In this document: positions 32,358 through 58,055 of the stretch, in pieces | How the letters are laid out: each line of letters starts with the position of its first letter | Numbering within the stretch: position 1 is the stretch's first letter | Assembly: GCA_964433755.1 (NCBI GenBank) | Contig: CAYSSR010000002.1 | Span: 278,351 to 342,350 of the forward strand | Source: an uncultured Anaerolineales bacterium | GTDB taxonomy: Bacteria > Chloroflexota > Anaerolineae > UBA7937 > B3-Chlor | Reading direction: 5' to 3' | Length of the DNA: 64,000 bases | Position numbers and translations under genes: made by a program | The notes under the pieces: generated by a model | Seen by the model: only the letters and a program-made list of their open reading frames with translations | Databases searched by the model: none | What the model was told of the DNA's origin: nothing

Positions 32358-32391
32358 TTTCGCCCCACCCCCGTCGAGACAATGGTGGGGA

Positions 32392-32440
32392 CGAAAGAAA
32401 ACGCGCTCTCAACCACGGTGCCAAAGGGAAAAAGAGCGCG
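32392..32440 (-). terminator. Intrinsic terminator/attenuator in the leader between riboswitch A and the protease gene (CGCGCUCU...AGAGCGCG + UUUUCUUUCG)
   Basis: A perfect 8-bp stem with a 23-nt loop and a U tract on the minus strand. Confidence 0.5.
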
Positions 32441-32454
32441 CTGAATAGCTAGCT

Positions 32455-32550
32455 TTTCTTCGGAGGCAACCCGGCCACCATAGTTCGCTCAGAACCGTAG
32501 GCCCGTGGCTTTGCGTCCCCACCTTTCGATGGGTTTGCCTTTATCACCGA
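32455..32550 (-). promoter_or_regulatory. c-di-GMP-I (GEMM-I) riboswitch aptamer A, in the leader of the C1 protease gene
   Basis: Minus-strand RNA reads GGUGAUAAAGGCAAACCCAUCGAAAGGUGGGGACGCAAAGCCACGGGCCUACGG...GGCCGGGUUGCCUCCGAAG. It matches the GEMM-I core (GGCAAACC, GAAA-capped P2, GGGACGCAAAGCC, a long P3, and P1 closure). Confidence 0.8.
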
Positions 32551-32618
32551 CTTACTGTTAAGGTCTTGCCTGTGAACTGATCCGCGTCAGCACCCCGTAA
32601 AGGACGCCGACTGGTATC

Positions 32619-33896
32619 TCACGCTTGAGCTCTCGTCGTCAACGGCACGTGGCTCTGCTGCAGCGATCCACTGGTCACGGAGAGGATCACCTGCACATCG
32701 ACAGACATGCCCCCGGCGTCTACGGTTATCGTCCCTGCGTGAATCCCTTCAGCGGTCGGGAAGCCCTCCAAGTAGACCACCACGGTCGATTGGCCGGATC
32801 CGGCAGCCTGGCTCAGCTTGATCCAGTCTTGATCGGCGCTGGCAGTCCAGTTGGCCCAGGTGTCGATGTGCACCCCGTTCCCGGCCGGCACCGTGGGCGC
32901 AGAACCCTGCATAGAGAGAAACACCAACGAATCGGGCGACACCCTCAAAGGCAGATCGAGGTAGATGCTGTCGCGGCTCTCGAGCACGGTCGAGCCCCGC
33001 CTGATCTGAGCAAGCACCGTAGCGGGTGATCCATCGCCGGTGGACAACGTCCATGCCTTGTCAGAGGAGAAGGGTTCCCAGGCCGACCAAGTCTCGCCTG
33101 CGTTGCGGAACCTCATCTCCGTCGCCCAGTCCTGGCCATACACGTACAGGTCAACGGAGAGGCTGGCCGTTGACCACGCCTCTCCGTCGACCACCACAGG
33201 GTAGAAGGCATTTCCTTGTACGCCGTTCCGAGCCCCAAGATCAAGGGTCCAGTAGTGGTAGTAATACGCGCTGCCAGAGAAGGCATAGCCCCCTCCCGCC
33301 TCGCGGAAATCCACACTCAGCATGTTGTCCCTGTGACCGGGGCTATTCATCCAGGCATCGACCACCGCCCCAGACGACGTGTACCCCGCTGCGACGTTCT
33401 CGCCAAGATACGTATGGTTCAGGTACCCTGCATTCTCGATCCTGGTGACCCAGTCTGGTTCGCCAGAGCACGTGTGGGCGAAGCAGTCGTGGTTGGCCAT
33501 CCAGTCGCTGTGAAACTGCGCAGAGTCCATCAACTCTGAGGCCGCCTTCAGGGGCGGCAGCCCCCGACTCAGCCGTCTCACGTTTGTGAGACGGACCAGT
33601 GCGTGCCCCTGAGGCTCGTCGGGCGCCCCTGCACCCGCACTGACACTGACCAAACCTTCGTCCGAGTCACTGAGAGTGGATTCCGTGATGGAAGTGGTTC
33701 CGTCGGCGCCAATGAACCCGATGGCAACCGGGTTCCCGTCTCCATCGGCGCCTCCCACCGTGGCCAAGCTGGCCGACGCCAGCAAGAGCAGCAGGAGCGT
33801 ACAGGCAACAATACGATTCCTGGAGACTTCTCTACCTATCCGCAACATCCCGTTACTCGATAACATCTTGCGTTCGCTACGCTGTGCCAATCCCAT
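32619..33896 (-). CDS. Secreted CAP/SCP (YkwD-like) domain protein with C-terminal Ig-like/beta-sandwich domains
   Basis: Signal peptide (the true start is probably an internal ATG, MLRIG...). The SPGHRDNMLSVDFREAGGGYA motif is CAP-type. Confidence 0.75.
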   Translation of the reverse strand: MGLAQRSERKMLSSNGMLRIGREVSRNRIVACTLLLLLLASASLATVGGADGDGNPVAIGFIGADGTTSITESTLSDSDEGLVSVSAGAGAPDEPQGHALVRLTNVRRLSRGLPPLKAASELMDSAQFHSDWMANHDCFAHTCSGEPDWVTRIENAGYLNHTYLGENVAAGYTSSGAVVDAWMNSPGHRDNMLSVDFREAGGGYAFSGSAYYYHYWTLDLGARNGVQGNAFYPVVVDGEAWSTASLSVDLYVYGQDWATEMRFRNAGETWSAWEPFSSDKAWTLSTGDGSPATVLAQIRRGSTVLESRDSIYLDLPLRVSPDSLVFLSMQGSAPTVPAGNGVHIDTWANWTASADQDWIKLSQAAGSGQSTVVVYLEGFPTAEGIHAGTITVDAGGMSVDVQVILSVTSGSLQQSHVPLTTRAQA

Positions 33897-33906
33897 TAAC
33901 TAAGAA

Positions 33907-33942
33907 GCGCCCTTCGCCACATGCCGTTGGTTCGAAGAGCGC
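33907..33942 (-). terminator. Hairpin (GCGCUCUUCG/CGAAGGGCGC) in the leader between riboswitch B and the CAP-protein gene. Candidate attenuator.
   Basis: 10-bp stem with one G-U pair, followed by a weak U tract that overlaps the annotated start region. Confidence 0.35.
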
Positions 33943-33959: not shown

Positions 33960-34055
33960 TCCTTCGGAGGCAACCCGGCGACCGTAGTTCGACTGAACCG
34001 TAGGCCCGTGGCTTTGCGTCCCCACCTTTCGATGGGTTTGCCTTTGTCACCGCTC
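33960..34055 (-). promoter_or_regulatory. c-di-GMP-I (GEMM-I) riboswitch aptamer B, in the leader of the CAP-protein gene
   Basis: ~93% identical to aptamer A over ~90 nt, with the same GEMM-I core. Confidence 0.8.
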
Positions 34056-34088
34056 GATTGTCAAGGTAAGACCCTCAATGCCATTCCA

Positions 34089-34117
34089 AGTATACAGCAA
34101 GCAGCGCAGACAATCAA
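34089..34117 (-). promoter_or_regulatory. Sigma70-type promoter (minus) TTGATT-17-TATACT driving riboswitch B
   Basis: Reverse complement reads ccaTTGATTgtctgcgctgcttgctgTATACTtgg. Confidence 0.5.
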
Positions 34118-34240: not shown

Positions 34241-34269
34241 TTGACACCACCCGGACGGTTGTCTATAAT
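34241..34269 (+). promoter_or_regulatory. Consensus sigma70 promoter TTGACA-17-TATAAT driving riboswitch C and the PEP-CTERM operon
   Basis: The sequence ccTTGACAccacccggacggttgtcTATAATtc is a perfect consensus. Confidence 0.7.
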
Positions 34270-34299
34270 TCGTGATGCCTCTACATCGACTGATCAACG

Positions 34300-34395
34300 C
34301 AGGGTAACGAAAAGGCAACCTTCCTGCGAGGGAAGGAACGCAAAGCCTCGGATCTAGGCTGAACGCGCTCTGACGCCCAGATAGCCGAGCTGCCG
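34300..34395 (+). promoter_or_regulatory. GEMM-I-class (c-di-GMP-I or related cyclic dinucleotide) riboswitch aptamer C
   Basis: AAAAGGCAACC-UUCCUGCGAGGGAAGG (GNRA-capped P2)-AACGCAAAGCC-long P3-GCUGCC. It deviates from consensus at GCAA(A)CC and GGAACGC, so the call is less certain than A and B. Confidence 0.55.
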
Positions 34396-34425
34396 AACTA
34401 CTCAGGCGGCTCGGCGTTTTTTGTT
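34384..34425 (+). terminator. Intrinsic terminator (GCCGAGCUGCC...GGCGGCUCGGC + GUUUUUUGUU) forming the expression platform of riboswitch C
   Basis: 11-bp stem plus a U tract. The 5' arm is shared with the aptamer P3/P1 3' side, which implies a ligand-dependent antitermination (ON) switch. Confidence 0.7.
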
Positions 34426-34549: not shown

Positions 34550-36130
34550 ATGCTTACTGGAAATGGTCGCATCTCATCGTGGGCGCGCGGCGTCAGTGTT
34601 GTCACTGTCGCCCTTCTTATGCTGATCGCACCCGGGTTGGCGCAGGCTCAGGGACCCGGGGCATGGGAGGAATACTCCGGCAACCCCATCATCGATCCCC
34701 CGGAAGAGGACGCCTACTACCCCAGCGTGCTCTACGACTCTTCCCCGACACCCTTTAGTGGCCACGGGGAAGCAAGCGCCTTCAAGATGTGGCACGACAA
34801 CGGTCTCCAGTACAGAGTCTCCGACGACGGTCTGTCGTGGACCAAAGTAGGAGACATGGATGACGGCACCATCACCGGCCTGCCCGCTGGAGAGGTGCGC
34901 CATCCTCTCGTGGAGTACTACGCGGCTGGGTTCACTGGCAGGAACGATGGCGACAACCCCAGCTCCGCTACCATGTACTATCGTCTCTGGTTCTGGCACC
35001 TGGGCCAGGACCTGTACAGTGTAGCTGCCATCCACTACGCCGAGTCGCCCGATGGAAAGGCCTGGTACAACGTGCAGCCGCTCCAGAACGGCACAGTGCC
35101 CATCGTCACGGGCACCTGGCCTGACTGGAATAGAGGATCGTACGGACCTTGCGATGTCCTCTTCTTTCCGGGAGCCAGCAACTCCGGAACTGACTGGACC
35201 TTCTGGATGTACTATGACGGCACCACCGGCGGAGACGAAGCCATAGGTCTCGGCTTCTCGGCCGATGGCGTGACCTGGACCGGGTACGATCCCGGCGGAG
35301 ACGGCCAGGCTGATGCCGTGATGAACGGCACCTACGTCTCCGGAGACTGGGACTACAACTACCTATCGCGCGCCACCATCTGGAGAGAGGCACCCGGCGA
35401 CTACCGCATGTGGTACAGCGCCGGCGTCGACACCATGAACCATGGCCTCGGATACGCCACCTCCTCCGACGGACTGAGCTGGACACGAGACCCCAACAAC
35501 CCCATCTTCTACAAGGACGATACCGGCTATCCTGGGTATCCCTGGCGCGAGAACCGTAGCTACACCCCCGTGGTGTTGCGTGCCGGGAACCTCTGGTTCA
35601 TGTGGTATTCCGGCGAGAACGGCGGGGGCAAGTGCATCGGTGTAGCCTATTCCAGCGCAGGACTTCCGGAGCAACTCCTGGAGATCGAGAAGAGCGCCCA
35701 TCCAGCGCAGATCGCTGTGGGTGAGAAGACTCTGTTCACCATCACCGTGACCAACGCCTCGATGGACGCCGCCGATGACGTAGTGGTCACGGACGAGATC
35801 GACGCGGGCCTGGAGATCGTGAACGTCCAGACCTCGAAGGGATTGATCTCCACGGCTGGGCAACAAGTGACGGTGGACGTGGGGTCCATGGCCCCAGATG
35901 AGACCGTGGTGATCGAGATTCGGGTGCTGGCGCTGGAGATCGGACAAATCGAGAACGTAGCGGTCGTGACCACGCCGCGAGTCGTCGCCGACGCTGGAGC
36001 GACGCTCGACGTGGTCAGCGCAGCAGCCGTGGAAGAGGAGTTCGTGCCCGAGCCGGGAAGCCTGCTTCTGATGGGCAGCGGCCTGCTCACCATGGCTGGA
36101 TACGCCATCAAGCGAGGTCGAAGACACTAG
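34550..36130 (+). CDS. Secreted BNR/Asp-box beta-propeller (glycoside-hydrolase-like) + DUF11 domain protein with PEP-CTERM sorting signal
   Basis: Signal peptide. Repeated SDDGLSWT / SADGVTWT / SSDGLSWT Asp-boxes and a DUF11 region (TITVTNASMDAADDVVVTDEID). The C-terminus VPEPGSLLLMGSGLLTMAGYAIKRGRRH is PEP-CTERM. Confidence 0.8.
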   Translation: MLTGNGRISSWARGVSVVTVALLMLIAPGLAQAQGPGAWEEYSGNPIIDPPEEDAYYPSVLYDSSPTPFSGHGEASAFKMWHDNGLQYRVSDDGLSWTKVGDMDDGTITGLPAGEVRHPLVEYYAAGFTGRNDGDNPSSATMYYRLWFWHLGQDLYSVAAIHYAESPDGKAWYNVQPLQNGTVPIVTGTWPDWNRGSYGPCDVLFFPGASNSGTDWTFWMYYDGTTGGDEAIGLGFSADGVTWTGYDPGGDGQADAVMNGTYVSGDWDYNYLSRATIWREAPGDYRMWYSAGVDTMNHGLGYATSSDGLSWTRDPNNPIFYKDDTGYPGYPWRENRSYTPVVLRAGNLWFMWYSGENGGGKCIGVAYSSAGLPEQLLEIEKSAHPAQIAVGEKTLFTITVTNASMDAADDVVVTDEIDAGLEIVNVQTSKGLISTAGQQVTVDVGSMAPDETVVIEIRVLALEIGQIENVAVVTTPRVVADAGATLDVVSAAAVEEEFVPEPGSLLLMGSGLLTMAGYAIKRGRRH

Positions 36131-36184
36131 GTCTGTTTCTGTTCGCGCCGGGAGGCACCTGAGGATGCTGGCAAGGAGAAAGAC

Positions 36185-37756
36185 GTGAGTCGAGGCCATT
36201 TCACACTGATTGCTGTGTTGCTCCCCACACTTCTGCTCGGGCTGGCCGCGTCGGGCGCCGCCTTCGCCGACGGTACGACGCATTACGTGAGTCCCGGACA
36301 AGACATCCAGGGGATCATCGACACCGCCAGTCCAGGGGACACTATCCAGTTCGCCCCAGGCACCTACACGCTGGCCTCGACCCTCTGCGTGAGCAAACCG
36401 CTTACTCTCACCTCTGCCGACCCCTACGCAGAAGTCAAACCCCTTCTCGACGGTGGAGGGAGTCTGGAGACCATCGTCTACGTGAACTCGGACAGCGTGG
36501 TCATCGATGGGCTGGAGATCGCCAATGGCACCGGCGATCTCGTCCTCCAGAGCGGGGCGTACGCAGAAACCGTGGTCCGGAACAACACTGTCCACGATTC
36601 GACCGGAGACGAGGGCATCCAGTTGAAGCAGTGCACGGATTGCGTTGTCGAATTCAACCTCATCTACGACGTCGCTCAGGATGGCATCTGCATAGCGGAC
36701 GCCTCGCACGACTGCCTGATCAGCAACAACGAGATCTACAACTCGTACAGCGAGAACGCCGTCATCTACGTCTACGATTCATACAACATCACTGTGGAAA
36801 GCAACTACATCCACGATACGCAGGGAGCCAACGGCATCACGTTCTACAAGAACTACGGCGCCACCCACACCATCACCAACAACCTCATCGTCAGCAACGA
36901 GTGGCGGGGTGGCAAGCACTGCTACGACGAAGCCGACGGAAATGCGGTGAGCATCTACAAGCCCCGGACGTCCAGCACCTACGTGGTCACTCACAATACC
37001 ATCGATGACAACACGCCGGCCAACGGTTGCGCCCAGCCGGGAAACGCCATCTACGTCAACGATGGCTCCGGGGTGGGCTTCAGCACCGACGTGCAGAGCA
37101 ACATCGTGACCAATCACAGCGGCTACGGCATCCGCACCTACTGTGAGGCTCTGGTGGGCTATGGCTGCAACGACCTGTGGCAGAATGCTCTCGGCGCCAC
37201 GGACGGCAACCCCGTAGATGCCGGCGGCAACATCTCCGCTGATCCCCTCTTCGATACCGACCACTCCTTGCTGGAAGGAAGCCCCGCCATCGACATGGCC
37301 TGCGACGGGAAAGACATGGGGGTCGACTTCTCGTTGTGGGGATACGAGCCCGCACTCCAGATCACGAAGGCCGTGAATCCGCTCTCGGTGGAAGAGGGAG
37401 CGGGGGCGACGTTCACCATCACTGTAACGAACGACGGCCCTGGGGCGGCACAGGACGTGGTGCTCACCGACGAGATAGACGCAGACCTTCAGATCTCCTC
37501 CGTGGAGACTACTCAGGGCACCCCACTCCAGGTAGGCCAGACGATCACTGTCGATATCGGGATGCTCGAGCGTAACGAAACCGTGACCGTCACCATCGCC
37601 GTGACAGCAACCGAGATGGGCACCCAGGTCAACGTCGCCCATCTGCGCTCCCTCACAGTCGAGGGGATGGATTCCAACAGTGTGCCGCTGGAGGTAGGGC
37701 CGCCCGCCCAACCACCACCCAACTTCTACTTTCCGCTCGTGCTCTGTGCTTTCTGA
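36185..37756 (+). CDS. Secreted right-handed parallel beta-helix (pectate-lyase-fold, PbH1 repeats) + DUF11 domain protein
   Basis: Signal peptide. Repeated NNT/NNE...I.N/D beta-helix rungs and a DUF11 region (TFTITVTNDGPGAAQDVVLTDEID). It has a hydrophobic C-terminus but no PEP motif. Confidence 0.7.
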   Translation: MSRGHFTLIAVLLPTLLLGLAASGAAFADGTTHYVSPGQDIQGIIDTASPGDTIQFAPGTYTLASTLCVSKPLTLTSADPYAEVKPLLDGGGSLETIVYVNSDSVVIDGLEIANGTGDLVLQSGAYAETVVRNNTVHDSTGDEGIQLKQCTDCVVEFNLIYDVAQDGICIADASHDCLISNNEIYNSYSENAVIYVYDSYNITVESNYIHDTQGANGITFYKNYGATHTITNNLIVSNEWRGGKHCYDEADGNAVSIYKPRTSSTYVVTHNTIDDNTPANGCAQPGNAIYVNDGSGVGFSTDVQSNIVTNHSGYGIRTYCEALVGYGCNDLWQNALGATDGNPVDAGGNISADPLFDTDHSLLEGSPAIDMACDGKDMGVDFSLWGYEPALQITKAVNPLSVEEGAGATFTITVTNDGPGAAQDVVLTDEIDADLQISSVETTQGTPLQVGQTITVDIGMLERNETVTVTIAVTATEMGTQVNVAHLRSLTVEGMDSNSVPLEVGPPAQPPPNFYFPLVLCAF

Positions 37757-37873
37757 GGGCTACTCTCGCGGCCCCTCAGACCATGACTTGCCTCTTCGGC
37801 AAGCCAGAATAGGAAATGGTGGTGACTCAATAGTTGAAGGCGACGACTCGAGACATCGGGAGGAGGAAAGACA

Positions 37874-39451
37874 ATGAAGCATAGACAGGGTAGGGTCTCA
37901 CTGCGCACAGCGGGTGCTTGTATGGCGATCGTCATCTCCCTTCTGCTGCTCGTTCCAGGGCTGGCGCAGGCCCAGGGACCCGGCACCTGGGAAGAGTACT
38001 CGGGCAACCCCATCATCGGTCCCACCACCGACGCCGACGGTTTGTATCCCTCCATACTCTACGATCCGTCCCCGACCCCCTTCGGTGGTCACGGGGAAGC
38101 GAGCCACTTCAAGATGTGGCACAACATGAATCTCCAGTATCGAACCTCAGACGATGGCATCTCGTGGACCAAAGTAGGCGATATGCTGGACGGCACCATC
38201 ACAGGCTTGCCAGCAGGCCACGTGAGTCACCCGTTGGTGGAGTACTATGCAGACGGGTTCCCGGGTCGCAACGATGGCACCAATCCCAGCGCAAGCACGA
38301 TGTACTACCGGCTGTGGTTCTGGCACACCAGCTACCTCTACACCGTTATGTCTACCCACTACGCCGAATCAGCCGATGGCAAGGCCTGGTACAACCTGCA
38401 GCCCCTTCAGAATGGCGCTGTGCCCATCGTCACGGGGGTGTATGGCGATTGGAACCGAGGGTCGTACGGACCTTGCGACGTGCTCTATGACCCTGGTGCC
38501 AGCAACAGCGGCACCGACTGGACCTTCCGGCTGTACTACGATGGCACTACGGGCGGTGACGAAGCTGTAGGACTTGGCTTCTCGGCAGACGGAGTCACCT
38601 GGACCGGCTACGATCCCGACAATGATGGAGACGCCGATGACGTCATGAACGGCACCTACGTGGCCGGGGACTGGGACTACAACTACGTATCGCGCGCGAC
38701 CGTCTGGAGAGAGGGTCCAGGGGACTACCGCATGTGGTACAGCGCCGGCCCCGGGGAGATGCGCCAGGGCATAGGCTACGCCACGTCTCCCGACGGGTTG
38801 ACCTGGACCCGCGACCCCGGCAACCCCATCTTCCACAAGACCGATACCGGATATCCTGGCTATCCCTGGCGACAGAACTGGTCTTACACGCCCATGGTCT
38901 TGCGCGCCGAGAACCTCTGGCTGATGTGGTACTCTGGTGAGGGCGGAGAAGGGCAGTGCCTGGGTCTCGCCTACGCCAGCGCGGGACTGCCGATCACACT
39001 GATAGAGATCGAGAAGAGCGCCCACCCGCCCGAGGTGAGCGTGGGGGAGGAAGCCCTGTTCAACATCACCGTGACTAACGCCTCGCTGGACATCGTTGAT
39101 GACGTGATGGTCAAAGACAAGATCGACGCCAGCCTGGAGATATTGGACGTTCAGACCACCAAGGGATCGATCTCCACAACCGGGCAATTGGTGACGGTGA
39201 ACATAGGGGCCATGGACCCAGACGAGAGCGTGGAGATAACCATTCGAGTGCTGGCTACAGAACCAGGGACGATCGAGAACGTGGCCACCGTGGTCGCTCC
39301 GCGCGTCGAAGATACCGCCGAAGCCGTTCTCACCGTGATTCCCGCTGTCGCCGAGGAGTATGTGCCCGAGGCTGGGTCGCTGCTGCTGCTGGCCAGCGGA
39401 CTCGCCAGCATGGTCGGATTCGCCCGCGGCCGCCGCGGAAGGGCCAGATAA
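37874..39451 (+). CDS. Paralog of 34550..36130: BNR-propeller + DUF11 protein with PEP-CTERM-like signal (VPEAGSLLLLASGLASMVGFARGRRGRAR)
   Basis: ~65-70% identical to the first copy, with the same domain order. Confidence 0.8.
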   Translation: MKHRQGRVSLRTAGACMAIVISLLLLVPGLAQAQGPGTWEEYSGNPIIGPTTDADGLYPSILYDPSPTPFGGHGEASHFKMWHNMNLQYRTSDDGISWTKVGDMLDGTITGLPAGHVSHPLVEYYADGFPGRNDGTNPSASTMYYRLWFWHTSYLYTVMSTHYAESADGKAWYNLQPLQNGAVPIVTGVYGDWNRGSYGPCDVLYDPGASNSGTDWTFRLYYDGTTGGDEAVGLGFSADGVTWTGYDPDNDGDADDVMNGTYVAGDWDYNYVSRATVWREGPGDYRMWYSAGPGEMRQGIGYATSPDGLTWTRDPGNPIFHKTDTGYPGYPWRQNWSYTPMVLRAENLWLMWYSGEGGEGQCLGLAYASAGLPITLIEIEKSAHPPEVSVGEEALFNITVTNASLDIVDDVMVKDKIDASLEILDVQTTKGSISTTGQLVTVNIGAMDPDESVEITIRVLATEPGTIENVATVVAPRVEDTAEAVLTVIPAVAEEYVPEAGSLLLLASGLASMVGFARGRRGRAR

Positions 39452-43158: not shown

Positions 43159-43177
43159 GAAACAAGCTCTTCAGCAA

Positions 43178-43280
43178 CCTTCCCTACGCTGGCATTACCC
43201 ATGTCAGGTTCGTGGGGTCGAGGGCATTGCGGGCCCTCCTCTCAGCCTGGCTCACCAAGCTCCCCTGGGTGCTTCCATTC
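43178..43280 (-). promoter_or_regulatory. TPP (thiamine pyrophosphate) riboswitch
   Basis: Minus-strand RNA reads ...GGGGAGC...GCUGAGAGG...ACCCCACGAACCUGACAUGGGUAAUGCCAGCGUAGGGAAGG. It matches the conserved TPP aptamer blocks. Confidence 0.85.
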
Positions 43281-57981: not shown

Positions 57982-58055
57982 GGTGGACGTAGCTCAACTG
58001 GCAGAGCACTGGACTGTGGATCCTGAGGTTGCGGGTTCGATCCCCGTCGTCCACC
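57982..58055 (+). tRNA. tRNA-His (anticodon GTG) with encoded G-1. No encoded CCA.
   Basis: Manual fold: 7-bp acceptor stem plus G-1, D arm GCUC/GAGC, anticodon loop CUGUGGA, T arm GCGGG-UUCGAUC-CCCGU, discriminator C. Confidence 0.85.

Follow-up and report, generated by a model that had tools for sequence, protein, structure and literature searches.

In a 64,000-nucleotide stretch of DNA from an uncultured Anaerolineales bacterium (Chloroflexota; contig CAYSSR010000002.1, positions 278,351 to 342,350; hereafter the window), two leaders, A and B, carry nearly identical aptamers of the class I cyclic di-GMP (c-di-GMP) riboswitches, c-di-GMP-I. We propose that A and B are paralogous copies of a leader cassette of ~200 nucleotides (nt), comprising an upstream motif, a c-di-GMP-I aptamer, a linker and an intrinsic-terminator hairpin, which would be specific to a clade of Anaerolineae. 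The leader alone would have been duplicated, long ago and without genes, and the copies would now precede unrelated genes for secreted proteins. This duplication would predate the split of the window's organism from at least three other species, and the 93% identity of the aptamers would reflect very strong purifying selection, the flanks and free sites having diverged to near saturation. To the explanation as a whole, which joins old leader-only paralogy and purifying selection to an inferred switching mechanism, we assign a probability of about 0.72. A preliminary description of this DNA had read the same likeness as a recent duplication of a leader together with its secreted-protein gene.

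Results

Likeness of the A and B leaders

A scan of the window with Rfam models (cmscan) returned three c-di-GMP-I aptamers (RF01051, GEMM-I; gathering score 35), each aligned to the full model (positions 1-87; Table 1). The preliminary description had called riboswitch B at about 33,960-34,055, and the scan confirms an aptamer there on the minus strand. Over a global alignment the A and B aptamers are identical at 82 of 88 positions (93.2%), variable helix positions included, which reproduces the ~93% identity and the agreement at variable positions of helix P3 that had been reported. The P2 and P3 stems are the same in the two copies, and the mismatches fall at position 7, in the P3 loop and at two positions of the P3 internal loop. 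The likeness reaches ~20 nt upstream of the aptamer (ACCTTRACART); downstream, it takes in CCGAAG and CTAGC and runs on into a homologous, much more diverged hairpin (GCGCTCTT...GGCA..GTGG...AG.GCGC). It also covers the P1 3' strand and the start of the linker and goes beyond the universal GEMM nucleotides. The third aptamer, C, aligns with A or B only locally, with a score of 24 as against 94 for A with B.

Related loci in other Anaerolineae

A scan of one genome per GTDB species with the aptamer's 5' half as the pattern, six of its positions being free, recovered 94 stretches, spread over many phyla; the 5' half is therefore close to a universal consensus. These 94 aptamers from other genomes were preselected for 39 fixed bases of that half, and their best identity to A or B has a median of ~73%. 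A small group of metagenome-assembled genomes of Anaerolineae carries full-length aptamers that are ~91-98% identical to A or B, in DNA whose flanks are 68-87% identical to the window, and tblastn and blastn place the same gene neighbourhood at these related loci. The closest relatives of the window's genome are labelled Anaerolineae or Anaerolineales.

Three of these loci have the following layouts. The N9_380 locus (L030 and L037), with ~86% nucleotide identity over 7.5 kb, reads NifS-IscR-pepC1 <- A <- CAP <- B and then C -> DUF11/PEP-CTERM, beta-helix, DUF11/PEP-CTERM. The co228_446 locus (L068; 83-87% nucleotide identity to the window) has a similar layout minus the CAP gene, and SMAG_U8425 (L025) reads pepC1 <- RS1 <- RS2 <- CAP <- RS3, with proteins only 47-73% identical to those of the window. 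The aptamers of all three loci score 84-90 bits in Rfam. A metagenome scan with a pattern specific to the subfamily added 17 more contigs that carry the locus in several variants. The preliminary description had suggested that orthologous loci be compared to see whether one copy or two is ancestral, and the two-copy layout pepC1 <- A <- CAP <- B recurs in other GTDB species and in ten or more metagenome contigs.

Age of the duplication

The comparison drew on an alignment of 28 distinct leaders, each taken with 30 nt before and 105 nt after its aptamer. In this alignment the window's A and B agree at 82 of 89 aptamer columns (92%) and at 49 of 104 flanking columns (47%), and the paralogue pairs in N9_380, co228, U8425 and L109 behave alike (aptamer 86-94%, flanks 45-53%). 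Orthologues are another matter. The window's A matches the A copy of N9_380 at 95.5% in the aptamer and 96% in the flanks, and the window's B matches its counterparts in N9_380 (94.3% and 84%) and co228 (97.7% and 88%). Copies therefore group by position, not by genome: the window's B is 97.7% identical to the B copy of co228 and 92% identical to its own neighbour A. Informative aptamer columns 36, 89, 91 and 92 separate A-position from B-position copies in the three close genomes, and column 82 is the only informative one that groups by genome. Because the copies group by position, the flanks have diverged and orthologous loci occur in relatives, the two-copy state is, on these comparisons, ancestral to the group and the leader duplication is old.

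The aptamer itself hardly varies. No variation is found at 66 of its 90 columns among the 28 leaders, and 20 of its 27 base pairs never change, whereas the terminator stem does vary with its pairing maintained. All seven A/B differences lie in ~10 freely varying columns, and because of this the free sites of A versus B are, by this count, near saturation. Aptamer C supplies an internal control. Among the same three genomes its orthologues share only 84-86% identity, like the nucleotide identity of the locus as a whole, and because of this the A/B subfamily is, as judged from these alignments, evolving several times more slowly than C, its neighbour of the same Rfam family.

These data bear on three other accounts of the likeness. 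Recent tandem duplication of a riboswitch plus secreted-gene module within the window's genome draws on the high aptamer identity, which takes in variable stem positions and the linker start, and on the placement of the two leaders 1.5 kb apart on one strand. It is already contradicted, and we regard it as very improbable: the proteins downstream are not homologous (a Peptidase_C1 protein with an InlB B-repeat and a CAP protein with a BACON-like domain; BLASTP, best E = 0.16), the flanks inside the supposedly duplicated unit have 47% identity where orthologues have 84-96% in the same columns, each copy has position-specific orthologues in sister species, and the few A/B differences are crowded into columns that vary freely, at sites near saturation. 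Neither the recent date nor the joint duplication of leader and gene claimed in the preliminary description survives these comparisons. Independent origin followed by convergence, in which A and B would resemble each other as any two near-consensus c-di-GMP-I aptamers do, is likewise already contradicted and to our minds barely credible. Both copies do obtain very high Rfam scores (83-84 bits), and the 5' half does match the pattern found across many phyla, but the aptamers collected with that pattern are only ~73% identical at the median, and what A and B have in common extends to the P1 sequence, distal P3, the upstream motif, elements of the linker and a homologous terminator with a conserved apex.

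It is also conceivable that the copies are old and that continuing gene conversion between A and B, a form of concerted evolution, and not purifying selection alone, has preserved the likeness of their aptamers. The near-identical stretches of 55 nt would be good substrates, L105a, which sits in the B position, shows the A-type T at column 36, and at column 82 both window copies have C where N9_380 and co228 each have A in both of theirs. We consider concerted evolution improbable. Paralogues within a genome (86-94%) are no closer than orthologues across species (91-98%), the window's B is nearer to the B copy of co228 than to A, and columns 36, 89, 91 and 92 part A-type from B-type consistently in three genomes; conversion would, moreover, leave the conservation between species unexplained. 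Column 82 is recurrently polymorphic, with C also in U8425_RS1, L031 and L096. This column (window positions 34001 and 32498, minus strand) corresponds to the second A of the receptor-like CCUAAG loop described below, where both window copies have C. Its genome-wise pattern weighs against old paralogy under purifying selection alone; the base may have changed in parallel, been selected because it alters docking, or been spread by a small conversion event, and limited conversion could have occurred, although it is not needed.

Class membership

The consensus fold of the 28 leaders gives the three-helix architecture, with P1 (CGGUG/CCUCCG), P2 (CCCAUC-GAAA-GGUGGG) and P3. In B, P2 is capped by a GAAA tetraloop of the GNRA type and P3 contains a receptor-like internal loop. 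The tetraloop-receptor consensus is CCUAAG/UAUGG, and the loop found here, CCUACG...UAYGG, departs from it by a single change. The ligand-contacting nucleotides G20, A47 and C92 of the Vc2 riboswitch have presumed counterparts in A and B. Aligned to the model by cmscan, A and B alike carry the consensus G at model position 11, the ACGCAAAG core and, at the 3' junction, GCC. The equivalent position in Vc2, G20, is a selectivity determinant at which G, not A, favours c-di-GMP over cyclic GMP-AMP (PMC9262584; PMC9481103). Model score, three helices, GNRA and receptor-like loops and the specificity G together indicate that A and B are members of the c-di-GMP-I family, with c-di-GMP binding predicted.

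Table 1. Features of the riboswitch locus and other elements of the window (positions in the window; strand relative to the window as read).
Feature	Positions	Strand	Basis or remark
Aptamer A (c-di-GMP-I)	32462-32549	-	RF01051, 83.9 bits, full model; paralogue of B
Aptamer B (c-di-GMP-I)	33966-34052	-	RF01051, 82.9 bits, full model
Aptamer C (c-di-GMP-I)	34304-34397	+	RF01051, 52 bits, full model
Upstream motif of leader B, ACCTTGACAAT	34057-34067	-	5 nt before P1, within duplicated unit; ACCTTRACA in most of 28 leaders
Upstream motif of leader A, GACCTTAACAGT	32554-32565	-	Leader alignment
Predicted sigma-70-type promoter of leader B, TTGATT-17-TATACT	34089-34117	-	Consensus scan, 9/12 matches
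Terminator-like hairpin of leader B with tail	33895-33942	-	Forms in 28/28 leaders, aptamer enforced
B hairpin, 5' strand GCGCUCUUCG	33933-33942	-	
B hairpin, apical motif GGCAUGUGGCG	33915-33925	-	
B hairpin, 3' strand CGAAGGGCGC	33907-33916	-	
B hairpin, U-rich tail UUCUUAGUUAAU	33895-33906	-	
Terminator-like hairpin of leader A with tail	32384-32440	-	
A hairpin, 5' strand CGCGCUCU	32433-32440	-	
A hairpin, apex GGCACCGUGGUU	32411-32422	-	
A hairpin, 3' strand AGAGCGCG	32402-32409	-	
A U-tail and anti-Shine-Dalgarno segment UUUUCUUUCGUCCCCACC	32384-32401	-	
Invariant strand of aptamer A, GGUGGGGACGCAAAG	32509-32523	-	Complementary to anti-Shine-Dalgarno segment
Shine-Dalgarno region of peptidase gene, GGGGGUGGGGCGAAA	32358-32372	-	Duplex with anti-Shine-Dalgarno segment, -23.7 kcal/mol
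Gene under A: secreted papain-family (C1) cysteine peptidase with InlB B-repeat, 435 aa	31050-32357	-	Pfam Peptidase_C1 2.6e-49, Flg_new_2 3.7e-10
Gene under B: secreted CAP-domain protein with BACON-like C-terminal domain, 425-aa open reading frame	32619-33896	-	Pfam CAP 1.4e-19; BACON_2 weak, below cut-off
Leader C, divergent from B	34241-34425	+	Promoter, aptamer, overlapping terminator
C promoter, perfect TTGACA-17-TATAAT	34241-34269	+	Consensus scan
C terminator, 5' strand GCCGAGCUGCC	34384-34394	+	Doubles as 3' strand of aptamer C
C terminator, 3' strand GGCGGCUCGGC	34405-34415	+	
C terminator, U run	34416-34425	+	
Gene downstream of C: DUF11/PEP-CTERM protein	34550-36130	+	PEP-CTERM motif detected
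Beta-helix/DUF11 gene	36185-37756	+	
Second DUF11 paralogue	37874-39451	+	72% identical to 34550-36130 protein; similar C-terminus
Thiamine pyrophosphate (TPP) riboswitch	43163-43276	-	Rfam, 61.2 bits (gathering score 54.3)
tRNA gene	57983-58055	+	Rfam

Predicted switching of A and B

In each leader a G+C-rich hairpin follows 20-25 nt past P1 and is itself followed by a U-rich tail. The preliminary description held that these downstream hairpins differ, and their sequences are indeed much diverged; they are, even so, homologues of one terminator hairpin in which pairing has been maintained. The terminator is compatible with a folded aptamer: with the aptamer enforced, it forms in 28 of 28 leaders. 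At the hairpin apex lies a conserved GGC-N(1-4)-GUGGC motif complementary to the invariant 5' strand of P3, AGCCACGGGCC. In 24 of the 28 leaders the duplex between the two has an energy of -16 to -24 kcal/mol (z = -2.5 to -4.7); for B the values are -16.6 kcal/mol and z = -2.5. When nascent transcripts were folded with the RNA cut just before the 3' strand of the terminator, this alternative helix was present in the minimum free energy (MFE) fold of 22 of the 28 leaders, B among them, at 9-19 kcal/mol below the aptamer state. As read from the sequences, the alternative helix frees GGUU...CGAAG to pair with the terminator 5' strand CUUCGAACC. In the OFF switch Cd1 aptamer and terminator coexist, whereas in the ON switch pilM they are mutually exclusive (PMC9262584).

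We propose that, with c-di-GMP bound, the aptamer would stay folded and the downstream hairpin and U-tract would end transcription, leaving the gene OFF. With no ligand, the P3 5' strand AGCCACGGGCC would pair with the terminator apex and the freed aptamer 3' strand would pair with the terminator 5' strand, which would block termination and leave the gene ON. Because the terminator coexists with the aptamer and its apex is complementary to the P3 5' strand, A and B are predicted to be OFF switches, reading through without ligand and terminating with c-di-GMP, a direction that we hold to be somewhat better than an even bet.

The opposite direction deserves consideration. A and B might be ON switches, or might act mainly on translation, with a downstream hairpin that is not a ligand-promoted terminator. 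Leader A does have a clear hairpin that would sequester its Shine-Dalgarno (SD) sequence, one class I riboswitch of Clostridioides difficile is positively regulated (PMC6200980), and the full-length MFE fold of B contains the terminator whatever the state of the aptamer, which leaves thermodynamic switching unclear. We nevertheless think such a design unlikely, since the terminators of A and B have no overlap with the aptamer, whereas c-di-GMP-I or cyclic GMP-AMP switches of the ON type (such as pilM, and the window's own C) put the terminator 5' strand inside it, and since the conserved apex complementarity would provide a ligand-free antiterminator in 22 of 28 nascent transcripts.

Several observations weigh against the OFF mechanism as we have drawn it. 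Its direction would rest on secondary-structure energetics without ligand or tertiary terms. The full-length MFE fold of B keeps the terminator even when the aptamer is not constrained, and therefore any control of B must be kinetic. The aptamer side of the antiterminator is invariant, and therefore covariation cannot support the helix. Four leaders (L072, L093a, L097 and L103) have the same aptamer without the apex complementarity, and therefore the apex pairing is not the sole reason for the frozen aptamer. The U-tails, finally, are only moderately U-rich, and terminator function in this phylum is a prediction.

Two other pairings were considered and set aside. A hairpin of GUUGCC in the aptamer 3' strand with GGACAAC in the linker of B was rejected, the linker not being conserved among B orthologues. 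An antiterminator made from the P1 3' strand and CGAAGG/UCUUCG spans ~6 base pairs in varying registers and is insufficient alone; we kept it only within the larger strand swap.

The ligand-free fold of leader A differs somewhat. CGGUG.UAAAGG pairs with CCUUUG.CACCG, a GAAGAA...UUUUUC hairpin forms as well, and this fold lies 12 kcal/mol below the state with aptamer plus terminator. Its anti-SD segment, UUUCGUCCCCACC / CGUCCCCACC, is complementary to the SD region and equally to an invariant strand of the aptamer (Table 1); the two duplexes have energies of -20 to -25 kcal/mol each, and the arrangement is kept in 11 peptidase-linked leaders. In these peptidase copies the anti-SD segment would pair either with the P2 3' strand and junction J2/3 or with the ribosome-binding site, which suggests a second, translational layer of control in leader A. 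The hairpin that would sequester the ribosome-binding site is extra in A and lacking in B, and the predicted energetics of the leaders also differ. Different tuning of A and B, as raised in the preliminary description, is thus plausible.

The upstream motif

Most of the 28 leaders carry the motif (G)ACCTTRACA 5-10 nt before P1; in B it lies inside the predicted transcript, the conserved B promoter being further upstream. Three roles for it were tried and rejected. Pairing of ACCUURACA with the P2 3' strand gave duplex energies no better than those of shuffled sequences (z ~0). A partner in P3, suggested by a general scan, was weak and inconsistent and is broken in the window copies. As a promoter element, with TTGACA/TTAACA as -35 or GACAAT as -10, it had by eye no properly spaced partner hexamer.

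Downstream genes and transcription unit

The N-termini of the peptidase and the CAP protein look by eye like signal peptides. CAP orthologues in related loci are 55-82% identical, and an exact-protein look-up of the CAP protein led to a single 1.5-kb Logan contig without context. The ATG at 33896 that opens the CAP reading frame is not kept in N9_380, the closest orthologue, and the true start is, from this alignment, probably the ATG at 33866 or 33848.

The hexamers of the predicted B promoter are kept in the alignment with N9_380 and co228, and SMAG_U8425 has TTGACT-17-TATAAT there. A consensus scan found no comparable sigma-70-like site upstream of A and there is no terminator-like site after the CAP stop codon. 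Because of these two absences, B, CAP, A and the peptidase gene are probably, as far as the sequence indicates, one transcription unit inside which A would act as a second checkpoint. The peptidase, last in such a transcript, would have to pass two c-di-GMP checkpoints. Weighing against this arrangement, the promoter scan is crude and A may have a weak promoter.

Riboswitch C and other features of the window

Leader C is kept in N9_380 and co228. Because its aptamer and terminator are mutually exclusive, the terminator 5' strand being part of the aptamer, C is predicted to be an ON switch of classical design. Some C orthologues alter the normally invariant ACGCAAAG core, to CCGCAAAG in N9 and ACGUAAAG in co228. 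Against the variant model RF03167, C (34305-34398) scores 49 bits, below threshold. The gene downstream of C and its 72% identical DUF11 paralogue flank a beta-helix/DUF11 gene (Table 1). The second DUF11/PEP-CTERM paralogue has no upstream c-di-GMP-I aptamer down to E = 1 in Rfam, and the three genes from 34550 to 39451 may form one operon under C. On the modelled directions of the three switches, high c-di-GMP would turn the DUF11/PEP-CTERM surface proteins ON and the secreted C1 peptidase and CAP protein OFF. Elsewhere in the window Rfam identified a TPP riboswitch and a tRNA gene.

Variants of the locus

The cassette is re-used with different cargo genes: the C1 peptidase, the CAP protein and a PAS-GGDEF cyclase. 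The last is found in a more distant relative (L108 2494-4239), where a PAS-PAS-GGDEF diguanylate cyclase (Pfam GGDEF 4e-52) lies between two riboswitches of the subfamily; from this gene order, a c-di-GMP riboswitch would there govern a c-di-GMP synthase, forming a feedback loop. In co228_446 (L068 5217-5485, and the same in L099) the CAP gene has been cleanly deleted, with loss of ~1146 bp (window 32663-33808) and remnants of both ends in place. This leaves the B and A leaders as a true tandem c-di-GMP-I doublet before the peptidase gene, and it would seem that gene loss here made a tandem riboswitch in nature. Three copies, in the order RS3 - CAP - RS2 - RS1 - peptidase, occur in more distant relatives (L025 780-2729, L109, L110 and L102). 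In L103 and L111 an RS2-type copy lies downstream of CAP, no peptidase gene is present and IscR follows; in L098 two copies are separated by 235 nt. Some aptamers very close to the subfamily, L093a (L093 4838-4926) and L019 (7728-7810), match best the variant model c-di-GMP-I-GGC (RF03167), at 72-78 bits and above its gathering score. These matches may come from overlap of the two models or from an altered ligand specificity; as the core nucleotides looked alike, we do not read them as a change of specificity.

Discussion

For annotation, the lesson of this locus is that near-identical riboswitch aptamers are not evidence of a recent duplication, and that flanks and orthologous loci may disagree with them. 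The locus adds an uncultured lineage of Chloroflexota to the users of several c-di-GMP-I riboswitches for secreted and surface proteins, with predicted outputs that are opposite inside 2.5 kb. If the strand-swap antiterminator and the dual control in A are true, it would offer a compact natural example of how constraints of an expression platform can freeze an aptamer. Such multi-partner constraints would help to explain why the A/B aptamer evolves more slowly than C. That all three elements hold jointly, namely a frozen and re-used cassette of ~200 nt, a strand-mimic platform, made up of mimics or complements of aptamer strands, with multi-partner constraints and a purely class I reciprocal switch with C, is a tentative proposal that we ourselves rate as rather doubtful. 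What is known of the c-di-GMP-I riboswitch class itself is unchanged.

Comparison with known systems

The closest counterpart in mechanism is Cd1 (Cdi-1-3) of C. difficile, an OFF switch that resembles A and B in aptamer class and in a terminator that lies downstream of the aptamer and can coexist with it; its competing ligand-free antiterminator would have a counterpart in the one predicted for A and B (PMC9262584). The antiterminator that we propose for A and B differs in that it is built from the P3 5' strand and the terminator apex and would unfold the whole aptamer, whereas that of Cd1 involves mainly P1. A and B, moreover, come from uncultured Anaerolineae and are known from sequence alone.

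A parallel for the proposed reciprocal logic is also found in C. difficile, in which c-di-GMP represses the secreted protease ZmpI (PPEP-1) via the class I riboswitch Cdi-1-12, while class II riboswitches of adhesin genes induce surface proteins (PMC6200980). The window would likewise have A and B OFF, for a protease and a CAP protein, and C ON, for a DUF11/PEP-CTERM protein. It differs from the ZmpI/adhesin pair in that both arms are class I and lie within one divergent intergenic region of ~350 bp, and its protease is of the papain C1 family, not a zinc metalloprotease like ZmpI.

Clustered copies have precedents too. Surveys list 347 doublets and 12 triplets of c-di-GMP-I; Bacillus thuringiensis has a triplet, and Desulfuromonas acetoxidans has clusters of highly similar aptamers (PMC9481103). 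As in those clusters, the aptamers of our locus are highly similar, close together and each provided with its own terminator, and true doublets of the A/B subfamily occur in the relatives L068, L025 and L098. In the window, by comparison, A and B are parted by a whole gene and form an in-operon series, not a doublet in one 5' untranslated region. Paralogous copies in one genome are likewise known from C. difficile 630, which has duplicated c-di-GMP-I regions, Cdi-1-4, -5 and -7 (PMC6200980). Those are strain-specific, recent and without downstream genes, whereas A and B form an old pair that is kept in other species, each copy with a linked gene. Multiple similar, clustered c-di-GMP-I riboswitches are already well documented, and set beside these systems the locus is essentially ordinary; what makes it mildly unusual is the sequence freezing of its subfamily, the strand-mimic platform and the predicted opposite logic of class I switches in one intergenic region.

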